Shown one piece after another: positions 15,844-64,000 of a stretch of DNA of 64,000 bases. The position numbers were made by a program, and so were the translations under genes. Each line of letters begins with the position of its first letter. Positions within the stretch are counted from its first letter, which is position 1. The notes beneath the pieces were generated by a model, which did no database searches, was not told where the DNA came from, and saw nothing but the letters and a program-made list of their open reading frames with translations. Location: NCBI RefSeq assembly GCF_058153355.1, contig NZ_CM177019.1. One strand, 5' to 3'.

Positions 15844-17243
15844 ACACTCGCCAGCTACTGAGCGTCGGTATCGATATCGGCACTACCACCACCCAGGTGA
15901 TCTTCTCCCACCTGGAGCTGGTTAACCGTGCGGCGGTGTCGCAGGTGCCGCGCTACGAATTCATCAAACGCGAAATTAGCTGGCAAAGCCCGGTGTTCTT
16001 TACCCCTGTCGATAAACTGGGCGGTTTAAAAGAAGCGGAACTGAAAACCTTAATCCTCGAGCAATATCAGGCTGCGGGCATTGCGCCGGAAAGCGTTGAT
16101 TCTGGTGCCATCATCATCACCGGTGAAAGCGCGAAAACCCGCAATGCTCGCCCGGCGGTGATGACGCTCTCTCAGTCGCTGGGCGATTTTGTCGTTGCCA
16201 GCGCTGGGCCGCATCTCGAATCCGTGATCGCCGGTCACGGTGCTGGGGCGCAAACCCTTTCTGAACAACGGTTATGTCGGGTACTGAATATTGACATCGG
16301 CGGTGGCACCGCGAACTACGCTTTGTTCGATGCCGGAAAAATCAGCGGCACTGCCTGCCTTAACGTCGGCGGTCGCCTGCTGGAAACCGACAGCCAGGGG
16401 CGCGTGGTTTACGCTCATAAACCGGGGCAGATGATAGTGGATGAGTGCTTTGGTGCAGGCACTGACGCCCGTTCACTGACCGGCGCGCAGCTGGTGCAGG
16501 TTACCCGGCGGATGGCGGAACTGATTGTCGAAGTGATTGACGGAACGCTCTCGCCGCTCGCGCAGGCATTGATGCAAACCGGTTTGCTGCCCGCAGGTGT
16601 TACGCCCGAAATCATTACGCTTTCTGGCGGCGTGGGCGAATGTTATCGCCACCAGCCCGCTGACCCGTTCTGTTTTGCCGATATTGGCCCGCTTCTGGCA
16701 ACGGCGCTGCATGAGCATCCTCGTCTGCGTGAGATGAACGTGCAGTTTCCAGCGCAAACCGTGCGCGCCACGGTGATTGGCGCGGGCGCACATACTCTTT
16801 CGCTCTCTGGCAGCACAATCTGGCTGGAGGGGGTACAACTGCCGCTGCGCAATTTGCCGGTGGCGATCCCAATTGATGAAACGGATCTGGTGAGTGCCTG
16901 GCAACAGGCGCTGATTCAGCTGGATCTTGATCCCAAAACTGACGCGTACGTGCTGGCGCTTCCCGCCTCGCTGCCTGTGCGTTACGCCGCGGTACTGACG
17001 GTCATCAACGCGCTGGTCGATTTCGTCGCGCGTTTTCCGAATCCGCATCCCCTGCTGGTGGTGGCCGGGCAGGACTTTGGTAAAGCTCTGGGCATGTTGT
17101 TGCGCCCACAGCTACAACAACTCCCGTTGGCAGTCATTGACGAAGTGATTGTCCGCGCGGGGGACTATATCGACATTGGTACGCCTCTTTTTGGCGGATC
17201 GGTTGTGCCGGTGACGGTGAAATCACTCGCATTTCCTTCCTGA
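15840..17243 (+). CDS. eutA: EutA, ethanolamine ammonia-lyase reactivase
   Basis: 467-aa ORF; operon position. Confidence 0.9.
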   Translation: MNTRQLLSVGIDIGTTTTQVIFSHLELVNRAAVSQVPRYEFIKREISWQSPVFFTPVDKLGGLKEAELKTLILEQYQAAGIAPESVDSGAIIITGESAKTRNARPAVMTLSQSLGDFVVASAGPHLESVIAGHGAGAQTLSEQRLCRVLNIDIGGGTANYALFDAGKISGTACLNVGGRLLETDSQGRVVYAHKPGQMIVDECFGAGTDARSLTGAQLVQVTRRMAELIVEVIDGTLSPLAQALMQTGLLPAGVTPEIITLSGGVGECYRHQPADPFCFADIGPLLATALHEHPRLREMNVQFPAQTVRATVIGAGAHTLSLSGSTIWLEGVQLPLRNLPVAIPIDETDLVSAWQQALIQLDLDPKTDAYVLALPASLPVRYAAVLTVINALVDFVARFPNPHPLLVVAGQDFGKALGMLLRPQLQQLPLAVIDEVIVRAGDYIDIGTPLFGGSVVPVTVKSLAFPS

Positions 17244-21804: not shown

Positions 21805-21880
21805 GGGTGAGGGCCGGATGAGGATGGTGTTTGATCCGGTCCATAGTGAAGTTACAAATTACGTTGAATTGCTATGTATT

Positions 21881-22198
21881 TTATTGCCCAACGGGATAGG
21901 CGATAAACAAACCGACAATTGTCAAAATACACGCCAGCAGGAATACCAACATACAATTTACGCGCTTTCGCGAAATTTTAAATAAATAGCAAAATAGTGT
22001 TGTTACCACGATCACTACCGGGATAGTCATAAAATTAATAACGATGAGTGCTATCAATCCAAAACTTGCTCCTCCACCGTGGGGAATAAAAATGTGTTCT
22101 TCAAAATAAACTTCTATAGCAAATGCCAGCACACATCCCAGAAAACTCATATCCAGATGAGGGTGCCATTTACTTTCTTTATGTGATGTGTCTGACAT
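21881..22198 (-). CDS. hypothetical small membrane protein (about 3 predicted TM helices)
   Basis: 105-aa ORF with hydrophobic segments (FLGCVLAFAI, LIALIVINFMTIPVVIVVTTLF, LVFLLACILTIVGLFIAY); AT-rich; co-directional with and 40 bp downstream of the 420-aa ORF. Confidence 0.55.
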   Translation of the reverse strand: MSDTSHKESKWHPHLDMSFLGCVLAFAIEVYFEEHIFIPHGGGASFGLIALIVINFMTIPVVIVVTTLFCYLFKISRKRVNCMLVFLLACILTIVGLFIAYPVGQ

Positions 22199-22238
22199 TC
22201 TTAAATGCTCCCGTGAGCAAACTGGCGCAAAATAATTT

Positions 22239-23501
22239 CTAAGATTGCTGATAAGACGTCGCTGTTGTCCGGCACTCCGGGCAGATAAACGCGTAAATTA
22301 TCCCTTCGCCGTATTGTTCAATATCGGCATAATCCAGTTGCGCAAGAAACATCATTGTGTGGGAACATTGCGGACAGAGAGGATATTCCGCGTCCTGAAT
22401 CCAGGTTGGATGCCCGCCAAGTTGCGAGAAAGAGACAGGTAAAAATGGGTCTGCGGCAAATAACGGTGACCTAAGGTTTCCCTGTCTCATGCTGTTTACA
22501 GGGAGTCGACGCCATTCCGATACATCATCCGGCAGCCAGGCAGGCGGGATATTTTTTGCAGACAAATGAGCGTTACCCTTTGAGTCCATGTAGCCGAAAA
22601 TGGTGCTGTAGGCGGTGCAACATTCGCAAGTCACGACGCGAAAACTGCCGTTATCGCTAAGACCCGTTGCCTTCAGGTCAACGTCGAAAAGATTTGTTAG
22701 TGGCAATGCGCAATTTGGACAGGTATCGTTGCGTTCATCAACAACACGCAAAGCTTCGCAAGACCCGGTGCTTTTCATCTCCAGATGAAAACATTGAGGA
22801 AAATAGAGATTACGCCTTTGATCTTCAGCGGTTAACTCCCAACCGGCCTCATGCGCATATTCTTCAGGCTCGATGTAAAGGGAGCTGCGCCACGGCGGTG
22901 GGCTATTGCGCCAGTGGGCAAAACGTTCAACGACAACGTCATCCCCAATCCATGCCAGACATTGCAGAATACAATTTCTGTTTTCTGCATCATCCTCAAC
23001 CCGTTCTAACAGCCTGTCGCGTACATCTGTGGGGGCGCGGTGGAAAGGCATATAAGAATCATTGTCCAAATCATCGTAAGAGATCCATTCTCTGAAATAG
23101 GCATTCAGATTCGCCTGGGTAAATGCCGCCAGACAAAGGCAAATCTCCTGAGCGAGCTTATATTCACCAGATGCAAAGCGTTCTGTGGCGTAATCAGCCA
23201 TCAGCTGCGCTTGATCGGTGGTCAGTTGTTGATACAGGGCATCTGTGGGAACGGGGCAGGGAGTCCAGTCGATTAACGCATCGAATTTCCGCGGTTGGTG
23301 AATTAATTTCAGCATGACAACCGGATCGCTTAACCCTGCAAACGCATTCACGATCTTTTTGTTTTTCTTGATATATTCGTCGTGCTCACGTTGCTGTTGG
23401 GCCTGCTCGCAGGGCATGCAGTATCCGTTAGTACGCGCTGCGGTTTCCGGAAGAATGGTTGATATACAAGCGGGGCTTTTACAGGGAATACGGTGAGTCA
23501 T
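22239..23501 (-). CDS. hypothetical Cys-rich protein: N-terminal zinc-ribbon-like motif and C-terminal DUF1963 (YwqG)-like region
   Basis: 420-aa ORF; four CxxC motifs (CMPC, CPNC, CPQC, CPEC); C-terminus GGHPTWIQ...CPQCSHTMMFLAQLD...YAFICPEC resembles the DUF1963/YwqG signature as remembered. To my recollection not present between eutR and hemF in K-12. Confidence 0.6.
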   Translation of the reverse strand: MTHRIPCKSPACISTILPETAARTNGYCMPCEQAQQQREHDEYIKKNKKIVNAFAGLSDPVVMLKLIHQPRKFDALIDWTPCPVPTDALYQQLTTDQAQLMADYATERFASGEYKLAQEICLCLAAFTQANLNAYFREWISYDDLDNDSYMPFHRAPTDVRDRLLERVEDDAENRNCILQCLAWIGDDVVVERFAHWRNSPPPWRSSLYIEPEEYAHEAGWELTAEDQRRNLYFPQCFHLEMKSTGSCEALRVVDERNDTCPNCALPLTNLFDVDLKATGLSDNGSFRVVTCECCTAYSTIFGYMDSKGNAHLSAKNIPPAWLPDDVSEWRRLPVNSMRQGNLRSPLFAADPFLPVSFSQLGGHPTWIQDAEYPLCPQCSHTMMFLAQLDYADIEQYGEGIIYAFICPECRTTATSYQQS

Positions 23502-23639
23502 AGAGGCGCTCCTTGCCTGAGGATATTAAGTCGAAAGAGATTATTATTAGATATTAGGGTGTCACTATGGCACACAAATTAAAACAGCATTAATTTTATG
23601 CCACCAACCGAGGGTTATTTTTCTTTTATTTTCATGATA

Positions 23640-24542
<903 letters not shown>

Positions 24543-26051: not shown

Positions 26052-26487
26052 GTTTCATCCTGCCCATTATGATGCGCACGGACGCCTGCGTTTACCTTTT
26101 CTCTTCTGGCTTGTGCTGTTGCTTCAGGCGCGAACCTGGGTGCTGTTTGTCATTGCCGGTGCGTCGCGCGAGCAGGGTACTGCGCTGCTAAATCTGTTTT
26201 ATCCCGATCACGATAATTTCTGGCTGGGGTTGATTCCCGGTATTCCGGCGGTGCTGGCGTTTTTGCTGAGTGGTCGGCGGGCTTCATTTCCCCGTATCTG
26301 GCATGTGCTCTATTTTCTGTTGCTGTTGGCGCAGGTGGTTTTACTTTGCTGGCAACCGTGGCTGTGGCTGAACGGTGAATCCGTTAGCGGTATCGGTCTG
26401 GCGCTGGTAGTGGCGGATATTGTGGCGTTAATCTGGCTGCTGACCAATCGACGTTTACGCGCTTGTTTTAATGAAGAAAAAGAATAA
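26032..26487 (+). CDS. yfeZ: inner membrane protein YfeZ
   Basis: 151-aa hydrophobic ORF; synteny; exact start uncertain. Confidence 0.8.
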
Positions 26488-41230: not shown

Positions 41231-42656
41231 TAATGCCAGTCAGTTAAGCAACTGACTGGCTCTTTTTCGGGGCTGTGGGGTATTTCCAGGGCCTCTCCTT
41301 TACCACTCTCGGGAAGGCCCTTTCCCTTCTTGTCGGTAATTTCACAAGTTGTCCCATACTTGCAAGATCGCGCATCAGCTCCGGTATACGTCCCGGTGAA
41401 GCGCCCTGCAATGTCATCAGCATTCTCATCACCATTCCGCATGATTCTGAGAAACTCAGTTGATTCGGCCAGTAACCTTTCAGATGTTCCGCCATTTTAA
41501 TCATCTGATATCTCACCAGATTATAAGCCAGTAAGACACCCCACAGCTCTTGCTCCACAAGCTCCGGCTTTTTACTTCTCAGCGTCAGCCTGCTCAGTTG
41601 CATCGTCTGTTTTATCTCCCTGTATCCCAGTTCGATTTCCCAGCGATGACTGTACAGATCCGCCATTTCTCCTCCGGGGAAGCGCATGGCGTCCGTCATC
41701 GACGTCAGCAGATGGCAGACTTTTCCTTTGCGCGTCACGGTCAGCAGGCGGGCTGTCACTTCATTTCCCAGTCCCGGCCACTTTTTTCGTGCCTGCGGGC
41801 TGGTTTTCAGCTTCACCAGATGATCGCCTTTACCCAGTTTTCTGATCTCTTCATATTGCGCTCCCTTTCTGAGAGGTATCATCCAGTGGCGGTGTTCTCC
41901 CGCCAGGCTCCAGGCATTTAACAGTCCCAGTGAGTAATAACCTTTATCCATTAACGTCAGAGTGTTATCGCCGGTTTGTTCTATAAGTTGCTCAGCAAGC
42001 TCATTTTCGCTGTTCTTCATCGTGCCGAAGGCTGCAGCCGTCAGCAGATGGCTGGTCAGTTCCATCTGGCAGACCATTTTGACCTGCGGGTAGAGCGCCG
42101 GGTTCCCGGCATGTGTCTGGCGGGGGAAGGCTGCATCGTTCTCTGGTGTATCCGGTGTGCGCCAGAACACACCATCGATGGCCAGCAGGGTCAGGCCGCA
42201 CCAGTGCGGATGCGGCGTGGCGTTATGCCAGAGCTGCGCTGTTTTCGTGAACACGCGGCGGACAGCCTCACTTCCCAGGCGCTGGCGGGCCTGAATAACG
42301 GCACTGGGGGCAACGAAGGGGCGATTGCCCGGCAGCATGATGTCCAGGCGATTCACAATCTGGTGAAGAGGTTCTTTACGCTCAAGCGCCATGCCAACAA
42401 TACACCAGACCATCATTTCGAGGGGAAGACGGCGCTTGCGTAGCGTTACAGTACCTGATTCGGCAAGGCAACGAGAGATGAGTTCGGGGTCGAGGTAATC
42501 CCCCAGAGAAGTCAGTGGGTTACGCAGAGAATCGTAACGGGATACCAGATCAAGAGCCTGTCCAATGTGCATAAAAAAATCCGGAAACAAGTGAGCGTTT
42601 CCGGATTCTTACACAGCCACTGGATCGGTCAACTGATCCTTAACTGATCGGCATTA
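41231..42656 (-). mobile_element. IS4 insertion sequence, complete (1426 bp)
   Basis: Imperfect terminal inverted repeats (left taatgccagtcagttaag..., right end reverse complement taatgccgatcagttaag...); one long transposase ORF; 12-bp target duplication; length matches IS4. Confidence 0.9.
41244..42590 (-). CDS. IS4-family transposase (DDE)
   Basis: 448-aa [29 protein letters not shown]...; recognised as IS4-type transposase. Confidence 0.9.
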
Positions 42657-57979: not shown

Positions 57980-58007
57980 ATTATAGGGAGAGTTCAAAAT
58001 GAGTCAA
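57980..58007 (-). promoter_or_regulatory. sigma70 promoter of the Val-Lys tRNA operon
   Basis: Minus strand reads TTGACT - 16 nt - TATAAT, followed by GC-rich discriminator gcgactcc, ~18 nt upstream of valU. Confidence 0.6.
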
Positions 58008-58219
58008 CGCATTTTCTAAAGAAATTGTTCGTTCGTCGTAAATTTAAGCAAGATGATCGCAAAACAGACCGTGTTGCGCAATTTCTCAACGAAAACAATA
58101 ATGCATCATGTAGCAACCCGAACTACATTGAGGAATCAGGCGGGAGTGATAGAATATCGCCCACTCAATTTTCCAGGATTTGCCGGTTGTCGGCATCTTT
58201 CTAAACGTAAGGCCATTTC

Positions 58220-59635
58220 ATGAAAATCAAAACTCGCTTCGCGCCAAGCCCAACAGGCTATCTGCACGTTGGCGGCGCGCGTACTGCTCTTTACTCCTGG
58301 CTTTTTGCACGTAACCACGGCGGTGAGTTCGTGCTGCGTATTGAAGACACCGATCTTGAGCGTTCCACGCCGGAAGCTATCGAAGCCATTATGGATGGCA
58401 TGAACTGGCTGAGTCTGGAGTGGGATGAAGGTCCGTACTACCAGACCAAACGTTTTGATCGCTACAACGCGGTGATCGATCAGATGCTGGAAGAGGGCAC
58501 TGCCTATAAATGCTACTGCTCCAAAGAGCGTCTGGAAGCGCTGCGCGAAGAGCAAATGGCGAAAGGTGAGAAGCCGCGTTATGACGGTCGCTGCCGCCAC
58601 AGTCATGAGCATCACGCTGATGATGAGCCGTGTGTCGTACGTTTTGCTAACCCGCAGGAAGGTTCTGTTGTTTTTGACGATCAGATCCGTGGTCCGATCG
58701 AGTTCAGCAACCAGGAGCTGGATGATCTGATTATCCGCCGTACCGATGGTTCCCCAACCTATAACTTCTGTGTGGTTGTCGATGACTGGGATATGGAAAT
58801 CACCCACGTTATCCGTGGCGAAGACCATATCAACAACACACCGCGCCAGATTAACATTCTTAAGGCTCTGAAAGCGCCGGTACCGGTTTACGCGCACGTT
58901 TCTATGATCAACGGCGATGACGGTAAAAAACTGTCCAAACGTCACGGGGCGGTCAGCGTCATGCAGTATCGTGATGATGGTTATCTGCCTGAAGCACTGC
59001 TGAACTATCTGGTGCGTCTGGGCTGGTCCCACGGCGATCAGGAAATCTTCACTCGTGAAGAGATGATTAAATACTTCACTCTGAATGCCGTCAGCAAATC
59101 TGCCAGTGCGTTCAACACCGACAAGCTGCTGTGGCTGAACCATCACTACATTAACGCGCTGCCGCCGGAGTATGTTGCTACTCACTTACAATGGCACATT
59201 GAGCAGGAAAATATCGATACCCGTAACGGCCCGCAACTGGCTGATCTGGTAAAACTGCTGGGTGAACGCTGCAAGACGCTGAAAGAGATGGCTCAGAGCT
59301 GCCGTTATTTCTACGAAGATTTTGCTGAGTTCGATGCCGACGCCGCGAAAAAACATCTGCGTCCGGTAGCGCGTCAGCCGCTGGAAGTGGTTCGTGACAA
59401 ACTGGCCGCGATTACTGACTGGACCGCTGAAAACGTTCATCACGCTATTCAGGCGACGGCGGATGAGCTGGAAGTGGGTATGGGTAAAGTTGGTATGCCG
59501 CTGCGTGTCGCCGTAACCGGTGCGGGGCAGTCTCCGGCGCTGGATGTTACCGTTCACGCAATCGGTAAGACCCGCAGTATCGAGCGTATCAACAAAGCGC
59601 TGGCTTTTATTGCGGAACGCGAAAATCAGCAGTAA
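58220..59635 (+). CDS. gltX: glutamyl-tRNA synthetase
   Basis: 471-aa [48 protein letters not shown]... with HIGH-class motif and KLSKR. Confidence 0.95.
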
Positions 59636-59686
59636 TTAGCGCATAAAAGATAAACGGCAGGAGAGATACCCCTGCCGTTTTTTTAT

Positions 59687-60079
59687 TTATGCTGATTCAT
59701 CAATGTCGAGACGAGCAAGAAAATTACGAATTCCTTCGCGTGACAAAAATTGCGCAACTTTTTCTTGCTCACTGTGAGTCATGTTGTCTATTGCGCTGAT
59801 GATTTGCCGATAAGCAGGAGTGCGAATACCCGGTGCGTATTCGGCAAGGGGTTCTTCGGCTTCCAGAAGCATCGGCGTGTTATGGAAGGCTGGCGTGTTC
59901 TGAATAAACTCGCAAACTTGCGTATCGACCAGAATAAGTCTGGCACGACCGCCTTTCACGCCGGGAAATTTCTCCGTTTTCCAGCCTTTTTCTCTGATCC
60001 AACGGTTAACAGTTTGTTTAGCCACACCGAGGCATTCAGCCAGTTCTTCGGTGGTCATTTTATTGCGTAATCTTTTCAT
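59687..60079 (-). CDS. yfeD: putative HTH DNA-binding protein YfeD
   Basis: 130-aa ORF; paralogous to the adjacent ORF. Confidence 0.8.
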   Translation of the reverse strand: MKRLRNKMTTEELAECLGVAKQTVNRWIREKGWKTEKFPGVKGGRARLILVDTQVCEFIQNTPAFHNTPMLLEAEEPLAEYAPGIRTPAYRQIISAIDNMTHSEQEKVAQFLSREGIRNFLARLDIDESA

Positions 60080-60080
60080 A

Positions 60081-60440
60081 TTATTTGCTATCGCGAATCC
60101 CTAAGCGTTGTAATAACCCGATAATCCCTTCCCGCAGAAGCAAGGATGTAAACTGTTTTTGTTCAACTGGCGTCATCTCTTTCGCCAGTGTCACCAGTAA
60201 CACTTCAAGCGGCGTATCACCAGACAGGGCAGGTGCTTCTCCCTGACCTTCCGGACGTTCAGCATTGCGAATATATTCACGAACCTGTTCATTGACGTGA
60301 ACCAGTCTGGCTTTGCCACCCTGTACGCCTGGTTTTGGTGACGTCGTCCAGCCTTCCTTGCGTACCCATTTATTAATGGTCTGACGGCTATAACCGGTCA
60401 GTCTGGCAAGTTCATCTGGCGTCATCCTCTCCTTGAACAT
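60081..60440 (-). CDS. yfeC: putative HTH DNA-binding protein YfeC
   Basis: 119-aa ORF; start may be the internal Met at 60425. Confidence 0.78.
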   Translation of the reverse strand: MFKERMTPDELARLTGYSRQTINKWVRKEGWTTSPKPGVQGGKARLVHVNEQVREYIRNAERPEGQGEAPALSGDTPLEVLLVTLAKEMTPVEQKQFTSLLLREGIIGLLQRLGIRDSK

Positions 60441-60599
60441 AACAATTCCCTGAATGTATGTAGGTCTATTAGCGGTTCATTTTATAACACCACTTTACAG
60501 GAAACCGTGACATGAATAACTACTGAATGCGAGCGGTTTTCCAAAATTGTTCATTTGCCTGATTTTTCAGCGATTGAAACTACACGCTGCAATTTGCCG

Positions 60600-60628
60600 T
60601 TGACACATTCGGGCGGAATTCATATGAT
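60600..60628 (+). promoter_or_regulatory. sigma70 promoter of the tRNA-Ala operon
   Basis: TTGACA (60600-60605) - 17 nt - TATGAT (60623-60628), followed by GC-rich discriminator gccgccc. Confidence 0.6.
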
Positions 60629-60659
60629 GCCGCCCGTCAACTCGACAAGCTTTACGTGA

Positions 60660-60735
<76 letters not shown>

Positions 60736-60774
60736 AAATTTTGCACCCAGCAAATTTGGTACGTAAACGACTCG

Positions 60775-60850
<76 letters not shown>

Positions 60851-60857
60851 AAATTTC

Positions 60858-60886
60858 AAACCCTCGCTGTAAAGCGGGGGTTTTTT
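60858..60886 (+). terminator. rho-independent terminator after the tRNA-Ala pair
   Basis: ccctcgct-gtaaa-gcggggg followed by tttttt. Confidence 0.6.
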
Positions 60887-61058
60887 GTCTCTGCTTTTTG
60901 CCGCTTTTGTAATACAGTCTACGTCCGGGTCAGCGCCGCCTGGTGAAAGCATCATTGGATGAAAAATCGGCAACAGGCTGGCCTCTGTTTGCTTCGCGAT
61001 GCGAATAAACTTATTATTTGTGTGCCTGAAAACCCCGATCAGTGAGAGTTGTGTACTC

Positions 61059-63248
61059 ATGTTTGTGGAGCATAACCTGATAAAAAATATCAAGATATTC
61101 ACACTAGCGTTTACGCTCACCGTGGTACTTATTCAGCTATCCCGTTTTATTTCGCCACTTGCCGTTATCCATTCCAATTATATCTTTCTGGCGTGGATGC
61201 CACTGTGCGTAATGCTGTCAATCTTGTTTATCTTTGGCTGGCGCGGTGTCGTTCCCGTTTTATGCGGGATGTTTTGCACCAATCTGTGGAACTTTCATCT
61301 CTCTTTTTTACAGACCGCGGTCATGATCGGCAGCCAGGCGTTTGCAGTCCTGTGTGCCTGTGCAATATTACGCTGGCAATTGGGAACGCGTTGGCGTTAT
61401 GGTTTGACCAGCCGATACGTCTGGCAACGTCTCTTCTGGCTTGGTTTGGTGGCACCGATTGGCATCAAATGCAGCATGTATTTTGTGGGGAATTTCTTTG
61501 ATTTTCCGCTAAAGATATCTACCTTTTTCGGCGATGCGGATGCCATTTTCACAGTCGTTGATTTACTAAGCCTTTTCACCGCTGTGCTGATTTACAACAT
61601 GCTTTTCTACTATCTCACTCGCATGATTGTAAGTCCCCACTTTGCGCAGATATTGTGGCGCAGGGATATCGCTCCGTCGTTGGGCAAAGAGAAACGCGCA
61701 TTTACCTTAAGCTGGCTGGCAGCGTTAAGCGTGCTGCTACTTCTGTTGTGCACACCTTATGAAAACGACTTTATTGCCGGTTACCTGGTACCCGTTTTCT
61801 TCATCATCTTTACCCTCGGGGTCGGTAAGCTTCGCTATCCGTTTTTAAATCTCACTTGGGCTGTTTCAACGCTTTGCCTGCTGAATTACAACCAGAACTT
61901 TTTGCAAGGGGTACTAACCGAATATTCGCTGGCATTTATTCTCGCGGTGCTGATTTCCTTTAGTGTTTGCCTGCTCTATATGGTGCGCATTTATCATCGT
62001 AGTGAATGGCTTAACCGACGCTGGCATTTGCAGGCGCTGACCGATCCGTTAACGCTCTTACCCAACTTTCGCGCGTTGGAACAAGCACCAGAGCAAGAGG
62101 CTGGCAAGAGTTTTTGCTGCCTGCGTATTGATAACCTTGAGTTTATGAGTCGTCATTACGGCTTAATGATGCGCGTTCACTGTATCCGCTCAATTTACCG
62201 TACGTTAATGCCGCTGATGCAGGAAAACGAAAAGTTGTATCAATTGCCGGGGAGTGAACTGCTATTAGTACTGAGCGGGCCGGAAACGGAAGGGCGACTC
62301 CAGCATATGGTTAACATCCTGAATAGTCGGCAAATTCACTGGAACAATACCGGGCTGGATATGGGCTATGGTGCCGCCTGGGGACATTTTGATGGAAATC
62401 AGGAAACCCTGCAACCCTTGTTGGGGCAGTTAAGCTGGCTGGCGGAGCAATCCTGCGCACATCATCATGTGCTGGCGCTGGATAGCAGAGAGGAGATGGT
62501 TTCCGGGCAAACCACTAAACAGGTGCTATTGCTGAATACCATTCGTACTGCATTAGATCAGGGCGATTTGCTGCTCTACGCCCAGCCAATTCGCAACAAA
62601 GAGGGTGAAGGTTATGATGAGATCCTCGCGCGACTGAAATATGACGGCGGCATTATGACCCCGGATAAGTTTCTGCCCCTTATTGCTCAGTTTAACCTTA
62701 GCGCGCGTTTTGATTTGCAAGTGCTGGAATCCCTGTTGAAGTGGCTGGCAACACATCCTTGCGACAAAAAAGGCCCGCGCTTTTCAGTCAATTTAATGCC
62801 GCTCACGCTGCTGCAAAAGAATATTGCCGGGCGGATTATTCGTCTGTTTAAGCGTTATCACATCTCCCCGCAGGCGGTCATTCTCGAGATCACCGAGGAG
62901 CAGGCATTTTCTAACGCAGAAAGCAGCATGTACAACATCGAGCAGCTGCATAAGTTTGGTTTCCGGATTGCGATTGATGACTTTGGCACCGGATATGCCA
63001 ACTACGAACGGTTAAAGCGTTTGCAGGCTGATATCATCAAAATTGATGGCGTCTTTGTGAAAGATATCGTCACGAACACGCTGGATGCGATGATTGTGAG
63101 ATCAATTACCGATCTGGCGAAAGCGAAGTCATTGAGTGTGGTCGCGGAGTTTGTCGAGACGCCACAGCAGCAGGCGCTATTGCATAAGCTCGGGGTGCAA
63201 TATCTGCAAGGGTATTTGATTGGTCGCCCTCAGCCATTAGCTGATTAA
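61059..63248 (+). CDS. pdeA: membrane-anchored c-di-GMP phosphodiesterase (degenerate GGDEF-like region plus EAL domain)
   Basis: MFVEHNLIKNIKIF... hydrophobic N-terminal half and C-terminal EAL-type domain; internal Met of track ORF 60999..63248 by synteny with K-12 yfeA. Confidence 0.85.
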   Translation: MFVEHNLIKNIKIFTLAFTLTVVLIQLSRFISPLAVIHSNYIFLAWMPLCVMLSILFIFGWRGVVPVLCGMFCTNLWNFHLSFLQTAVMIGSQAFAVLCACAILRWQLGTRWRYGLTSRYVWQRLFWLGLVAPIGIKCSMYFVGNFFDFPLKISTFFGDADAIFTVVDLLSLFTAVLIYNMLFYYLTRMIVSPHFAQILWRRDIAPSLGKEKRAFTLSWLAALSVLLLLLCTPYENDFIAGYLVPVFFIIFTLGVGKLRYPFLNLTWAVSTLCLLNYNQNFLQGVLTEYSLAFILAVLISFSVCLLYMVRIYHRSEWLNRRWHLQALTDPLTLLPNFRALEQAPEQEAGKSFCCLRIDNLEFMSRHYGLMMRVHCIRSIYRTLMPLMQENEKLYQLPGSELLLVLSGPETEGRLQHMVNILNSRQIHWNNTGLDMGYGAAWGHFDGNQETLQPLLGQLSWLAEQSCAHHHVLALDSREEMVSGQTTKQVLLLNTIRTALDQGDLLLYAQPIRNKEGEGYDEILARLKYDGGIMTPDKFLPLIAQFNLSARFDLQVLESLLKWLATHPCDKKGPRFSVNLMPLTLLQKNIAGRIIRLFKRYHISPQAVILEITEEQAFSNAESSMYNIEQLHKFGFRIAIDDFGTGYANYERLKRLQADIIKIDGVFVKDIVTNTLDAMIVRSITDLAKAKSLSVVAEFVETPQQQALLHKLGVQYLQGYLIGRPQPLAD

Positions 63249-63255
63249 CAGGCGT

Positions 63256-63286
63256 AAAAAAGCCGGGGAATTATCCCCGGCTTTTT
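63256..63286. terminator. bidirectional rho-independent terminator between pdeA and nupC
   Basis: aaaaaagccgggg-aatta-tccccggcttttt. Confidence 0.7.
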
Positions 63287-63302
63287 AATTAATGAATTGG
63301 AC

Positions 63303-64000
63303 TTACAGCACCAGTGCTGCGATTGACGCAGACAGCACACTCACCAGAGTAGAGCCGTAAACCAGTTTCAGACCGAAGCGAGAAACCACGTTACCTTGCT
63401 CTTCATTCAGGCCTTTAACCGCACCGGCGATAATCCCGATAGAAGAGAAGTTAGCGAAGGAAACCAGGAACACAGAGATGATGCCTTCAGCACGCGGAGA
63501 GAGCGTGGAAGCAATTTTCTGCAGATCCATCATTGCAACGAACTCGTTGGAAACCAGTTTGGTCGCCATAATACTGCCCACCTGCAGTGCTTCACTGGAA
63601 GGAACACCCATCACCCAAGCAACCGGATAGAAGATGTAGCCCAGGATGCCCTGGAAGGAGATGCTGTAGCCAAACCAGCCAGTCACAGTGGCAAACAGTG
63701 CGTTCAGCGCAGCGATCAGGGCGATAAAGCCGATCAGCATCGCGGCAACGATAATGGCAACTTTGAAACCTGCCAGAATGTATTCACCCAGCATTTCGAA
63801 GAAGCTCTGACCTTCGTGCAGGTTGGACATCTGAATGTTTTCTTCACTGGCATCAACACGGTAAGGGTTGATCAGCGACAGCACGATAAAGGTGCTGAAC
63901 ATGTTCAGTACCAGCGCCGCAACGACGTATTTCGGCTCCAGCATCGTCATGTATGCACCAACGATGGACATCGACACGGTGGACATCGCCGTAGCTGCCA
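63303..64000 (-). CDS. nupC: nucleoside permease NupC, C-terminal part (gene continues beyond window end)
   Basis: Minus-strand frame ends ...[16 protein letters not shown]; polytopic membrane protein; the track Met at 63986 is internal. Confidence 0.88.

Follow-up and report, generated by a model that had tools for sequence, protein, structure and literature searches.

The spacer between the convergent genes pdeA (yfeA) and nupC in the 64,000-nucleotide stretch of DNA analysed here (the window) is, with high confidence, the native intergenic region of these two genes, carrying no insertion sequence (IS) and representing the majority state in E. coli, an unoccupied target for IS186. The preliminary description of the window had reported no IS between pdeA and nupC and a 54-bp spacer with one bidirectional terminator hairpin, and both the coordinates of the flanking genes and the folding of the spacer agree with this. 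An empty IS186 site is in itself ordinary strain variation and already known biology; the addition made here is the recurrent landing of IS186 at the pdeA/nupC hairpin, which provides a natural example of the known target preference of this element.

The spacer is exactly 54 bp long, extending from the base after the TAA stop codon of pdeA (63246-63248, + strand) to the base before the stop codon of nupC (63303-63305, - strand), as determined from the list of open reading frames (Table 1). Translation from the ATG at 61059 gives pdeA 729 codons, the same length as annotated in RefSeq, and the frame remains open further upstream, to an ATG at 60999. The names of both genes are based on 97-98.7% DNA identity to genes annotated in RefSeq (5,424 genomes). 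A 1051-bp query spanning the junction found matches of 95-99% identity in 5,424 of the 5,426 complete E. coli genomes, and the features beneath these matches were pdeA and nupC. The partial nupC open reading frame also matched TIGR00804 (NupC) with an E-value of 2.8e-85 over profile positions 167-400 of 401. In an NCBIfam scan pdeA gave matches of the EAL/GGDEF type, to other proteins, and every one of these was below its family cut-off; the identity of pdeA therefore relies on the near-identical annotated RefSeq genes.

Table 1. Features of the window and the IS186-occupied pdeA/nupC junctions inspected in other genomes.
Feature	Position	Strand	Basis or remark
Partial IS621 (IS110 family)	1 to ~1170		97.5-99.4% identity to annotated IS621; window start cuts element
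Two-gene 1.8-kb segment	21807-23640	-	Between eutR and hemF; absent from K-12
IS4, 1426 bp	41231-42656	- (transposase, 41244-42590)	NF033592, E = 9e-91; alignment boundaries
pdeA (yfeA), c-di-GMP phosphodiesterase gene	61059-63248	+	Open reading frame list; RefSeq annotation under 97-98.7% identical matches
Spacer between convergent pdeA and nupC, 54 bp	63249-63302	.	Without IS, without REP element
Predicted bidirectional intrinsic-terminator hairpin	63257-63286	.	Folding of both strands
Unoccupied IS186 target motif, GGGG(N6)CCCC	63265-63278	.	Motif match
10 bp GGAATTATCC	63267-63276	.	Duplicated around IS186 in K-12 and four other inspected genomes
nupC 3' part (nucleoside permease)	63303-64000	-	~232 codons including stop; window end cuts gene
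Junction in K-12 MG1655 (L001)			pdeA allele WP_000497400.1; IS186 in K-12 orientation
Junction in FCI23 (L013)			pdeA allele WP_001296277.1; IS186 in K-12 orientation
Junction in ST131 strain 5506 (L012)			pdeA allele WP_001296277.1; IS186 in opposite orientation
Junction in E200086 (L007)			Two-hairpin spacer; IS186 in K-12 orientation
Junction in Z0117EC0005 (L006)			Two-hairpin spacer; IS186 in opposite orientation

There is only one hairpin in the spacer, AAAAAGCCGGGGA-AUUA-UCCCCGGCUUUUU, composed of a 13-bp stem (63257-63269 and 63274-63286) and a 4-nt loop. Its G+C core, GCCGGGGAATTATCCCCGGC, spans 63262-63281 and is bordered by an A-run at 63256-63261 and a T-run at 63282-63286. The folding energy of the hairpin was -22.3 kcal/mol for the + strand (z = -5.85) and -22.7 kcal/mol for the - strand (z = -5.72), and none of 200 shuffled sequences folded as well.

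The absence of IS186 extends to the entire 64-kb window, as its end sequence was not found there with up to three mismatches allowed, and no part of the window aligned with the K-12 copy of the element. The spacer itself, at 54 bp, is too short for any IS. The preferred target of IS186 is given as 5'-GGGG(N6/N7)CCCC in a passage of PMC6925257 that cites Chong et al. (1985) and saiSree et al. (2001), and the core of the hairpin, GGGG-AATTAT-CCCC (GGGGAATTATCCCC), fits this consensus. It is the sole match in the window at either spacing. Since one match to GGGG(N6)CCCC is close to the 0.64 expected by chance in 64 kb, this count alone is weightless and the argument is carried by the insertions observed at the junction. 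A full-text literature search for IS186 together with nupC found no paper.

The preliminary description had also placed an IS186 copy at the nupC-yfeA junction of K-12, which is borne out by the annotation and sequence of MG1655 (NZ_CP009685.1). An "IS4-like element IS421 family transposase" (WP_001300563.1) is annotated between pdeA and nupC in that genome; this is the transposase of IS186, and the copy is the one catalogued as insL3 (b2394). The MG1655 junction reads ...AAAAAAACCGGGGAATTATCC / CATAAGCGCTAACTTAAGGGTTG ... CAACCCTTAAGTTAGCGCTTATG / GGAATTATCCCCGGCTTTTTT..., where the slashes mark the IS186 borders. The element is 1339 bp long with 23-bp terminal inverted repeats and is located within the pdeA/nupC hairpin, where it lies between two direct copies of a 10-bp sequence, GGAATTATCC, that comprises the loop and inner stem and is equivalent to 63267-63276 of the window. 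Removal of the IS and one duplicate from the K-12 sequence leaves a 49-bp spacer and rebuilds the hairpin, whose core then differs from that of the window at one position, where the left arm begins with A in K-12 and with G in the window. By comparison, the two halves of the split hairpin in K-12 have z values of 0.08 and -0.44 and fold no better than shuffled sequence. In K-12 and the other occupied genomes, IS186 has thus entered the loop and inner stem, duplicating GGAATTATCC and splitting the hairpin into two non-folding halves.

It is therefore K-12 that is derived at this locus, and the window has the pre-insertion form. The locus, the hairpin and the bases of the 10-bp target duplication are the same in the two, whereas the window is without the IS, its spacer is 54 bp rather than the 49 bp reconstructed for K-12, and its right flank differs. 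As the hairpin is split by IS186 in the K-12 laboratory strain, RNA 3'-end data from K-12 would miss the intact site. Studies of pdeA and nupC 3' ends in K-12 would consequently be unrepresentative of most E. coli, because K-12 is without the intact, predicted terminator.

The relative frequencies of the empty and occupied states were obtained from 5,426 complete E. coli genomes, many of which are clonal or are laboratory K-12 derivatives, so that the counts are not numbers of independent events. The junction was uninterrupted in 4,460 of these genomes (~82%). IS186 was present in the K-12 orientation, in which the pdeA end is joined to the IS186 end, in 474 genomes, and in the opposite orientation, in which the same flank is joined to the other IS186 end, in 467. 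These two classes make up 941 of the ~964 interrupted genomes, and ~17% (about one in six) of the complete genomes are occupied. All five of the copies that we inspected (Table 1) have an identical insertion point, the GGAATTATCC duplication and a 100% identical 1339-bp IS, and they are distributed over three flanking backgrounds and both orientations. In the ATCC 8739 group the opposite orientation is combined with a left arm of the A type, as in K-12, which brings the total to six combinations of background and orientation.

Since a change of orientation requires a new insertion, these combinations mean that the site has been occupied repeatedly, and the closeness of the flanking differences to the IS, within 11-30 bp, argues against a single insertion that was spread by recombination. 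Based on these observations we lean towards the view that the pdeA/nupC hairpin is a natural hot spot for IS186, with at least ~6 independent insertions at the same bonds, in the two orientations at nearly equal frequency (474 and 467 genomes) and in at least three backgrounds. The 100% identity of the IS186 copies suggests that this activity is recent and continuing. If the hairpin is indeed a hot spot, the site could act as a natural reporter of IS186 activity, and there would be an argument for recognition of the palindrome by IS186, possibly as an extruded hairpin or cruciform, beyond the G and C runs. The preliminary description had considered the difference from K-12 useful for strain typing. 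The presence or absence of IS186 at the junction is a weak marker: with the empty state in the majority and occupancy recurrent in both orientations, it is unsuitable as a lineage marker.

A site from which IS186 had been precisely excised would be identical in sequence to one that was never occupied. We infer that the site in the window was never occupied rather than precisely vacated, and we regard it as improbable that IS186 was formerly present in the lineage of the window and was lost, whether the element was excised precisely or the occupied segment was replaced or deleted through recombination. What lends some substance to a past occupancy is the make-up of the spacer. The common E. coli spacer is 49 bp (O157, CD306 and the reconstructed empty site of K-12), compared to 54 bp in the window, and that of the window is a hybrid: its left arm is of the common E. 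coli type and its right flank, AATTAATGAATTGGAC, was otherwise seen only in a lineage with a 142-bp spacer, in which two copies of the hairpin are separated by a REP element. In the two-hairpin spacer the first hairpin has decayed (GCAGGG...) and IS186 occupies the intact second copy, its orientation varying between strains. On the nupC side, the nearest genomes to the window all carry this 142-bp spacer (E200086 and Z0117EC0005, both 99.5% identical over 63266-64000, and 2020CK-00188, 98.7% identical over 62750-63800), and IS186 is in the second hairpin of E200086, Z0117EC0005 and E600003.

Relative to E200086, the divergence of the window is ~2% from ~58000 to 63265 and 0.5% after 63266. This step at 63265/63266 could reflect a recombination joint at the hairpin or close to it, as past occupancy followed by replacement would have it, and the alignment suggests that the window is a mosaic formed by recombination and joined near the hairpin. 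However, there are 0 mismatches to E200086 across 63012-63240, so that the position of the joint is not sharp. Several observations argue against past occupancy itself. The window has no scar, extra duplicate or IS fragment, and the two-hairpin spacer is uninterrupted in 18 genomes, 2020CK-00188 (L002 1990-2140) and 17 others, which indicates that the two-hairpin lineage is not uniformly occupied. Furthermore, the left arm and the 3' end of pdeA in the window are unlike hairpin 1 of that lineage, and the spacer of the window is therefore not reproduced by simply deleting the stretch between both hairpins. A site that was never occupied therefore remains our preferred reading. None of the 5,426 genomes carries the window's version of the junction as a single piece, the best one-piece match having 93.4% identity.

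Other variants of the junction were also seen. In strain ST2747 nupC is absent altogether. Strain 25DN (L010) has a 1-bp deletion in the loop, GGGGAATTACCCC, which retains the stem and reduces the spacing to N5, outside the N6/N7 quoted for IS186, and this strain is a natural test case for the target requirements of the element. A 50-kb plasmid record of Z0117EC0005 (NZ_CP098226.1) has a 201-bp stretch at 26231-26431 that contains REP, a hairpin half and an IS186 end and is identical to this strain's own pdeA/nupC junction on the chromosome. This stretch results either from an error of assembly or from the capture of chromosomal DNA beside an IS186 copy.

With respect to its function, the hairpin is most likely a Rho-independent terminator that serves the two convergent transcripts. 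It has the attributes expected of an intrinsic terminator, being a stable stem-loop on both strands, each with a U-tract directly after the stem (for the + strand TTTTT at 63282-63286, for the - strand TTTTTT, the complement of the A-run at 63256-63261), and it is situated just downstream of the convergent stops, 8 nt past one stop codon and 16 nt ahead of the other. The RNA of either strand would form a G+C-rich stem followed by a U-tract, resulting in termination of the pdeA and nupC transcripts. A simple terminator scan found only the version with the inner 5-bp stem, and only on the - strand. The hairpin is a perfect palindrome, and a true REP element is located beside its second copy in related genomes, but it is very unlikely to be chiefly a REP/BIME-type repeat, a small RNA or a protein-binding palindrome, given its classic terminator layout (near both stops, with U-tracts on both strands), the low copy number of the junction (a 121-bp query had a median of 1 matching place per genome and a highest of 2, which argues against a dispersed repeat) and its best Rfam scores, all over the hairpin, of 14-22 bits relative to gathering cut-offs of 50-114. 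No family reached its gathering score in the Rfam scan, which covered 62800-63700 at a permissive E-value, and the sub-threshold matches on the stem were dismissed as chance. In the test for REP/BIME elements, the spacer of the window was without the REP unit, of the GCCTGATGCG...CATCAGGC type, that is present in the two-hairpin relatives.

Elsewhere in the window, the preliminary description had noted IS4 and IS110-family elements and an IS load unlike that of K-12, and this was correct, with both elements absent at these places in K-12. The IS4 copy is situated between pdxK and crr, within the terminator palindrome AAAAAAATGGCGCC-CATC-GGCGCCATTTTT, and has a 12-bp duplication, CGCCCATCGGCG; in K-12 the pdxK/crr hairpin is intact (-22.9 kcal/mol). 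The IS110-family element is the partial IS621 at the start of the window, which lies between the expected place of ypfG and tkt and adjoins a REP palindrome (GCCGGATAAGACGCG...GCATCCGGC). There is no IS at the place of IS621 in either K-12 or E200086; the latter has an IS3-family element in pdxK and is without IS4 or IS621 at the places they occupy in the window. The IS content of the window thus differs even from that of its relatives E200086 and Z0117EC0005. The segment at 21807-23640 was considered as the IS110 element and rejected, as it has no transposase domain. Its two genes encode products of 420 aa, with a weak match to DUF1963, and 105 aa, with no match (a DUF1963 protein and a hypothetical protein in RefSeq), and the segment is present in only 28 of the 5,426 complete E. 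coli genomes, with 100% identity in 9 of the 28.

The window aligns to the K-12 interval from tkt to nupC with 94.6-96.8% identity by block. In the window eutA and eutB are adjacent (~17221-17243) and the CPZ-55 prophage, which in K-12 occupies 6.8 kb from yffS to intZ and interrupts the eut operon, is absent, which leaves this operon intact. The best match to a complete genome had 98.3% identity over 43000-64000, and none of the complete genomes matches the window throughout. E200086 has 98.5% identity to the window over 40 kb. Identity to the nearest relatives changes blockwise, from 99.5-99.8% in some stretches to ~98% in others, and these comparisons of sequence indicate that the window is a mosaic produced by recombination and belongs to a lineage with few sequenced members.

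Bidirectional Rho-independent terminators between convergent genes are a known kind of element from 3'-end mapping in E. coli. The hairpin of the window shares with them its G+C-rich palindromic stem, the flanking A-run and T-run and its nearness to both stops, and it is in no way distinctive among such terminators generally. The IS4 copy at pdxK/crr offers a parallel within the window itself, since both it and the IS186 copy at pdeA/nupC in K-12 are IS4-family elements inside the palindrome of a predicted bidirectional terminator, although the element and the site are different and the states are reversed, with pdxK/crr occupied in the window and empty in K-12. If the pdeA/nupC hairpin is a hot spot, this IS4 insertion would fit a wider tendency of IS4-family elements to insert into bidirectional terminators. 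A further counterpart in terms of IS186 is the hot spot at the lon promoter, where the element has been found in both orientations at one position (PMC3045373). A GGGG(N6/N7)CCCC-type target and the repeated use of one position in both orientations are common to lon and pdeA/nupC. The two sites differ in that the lon site is a promoter at which insertion has a strong phenotype, whereas the pdeA/nupC site is a predicted terminator between convergent genes.
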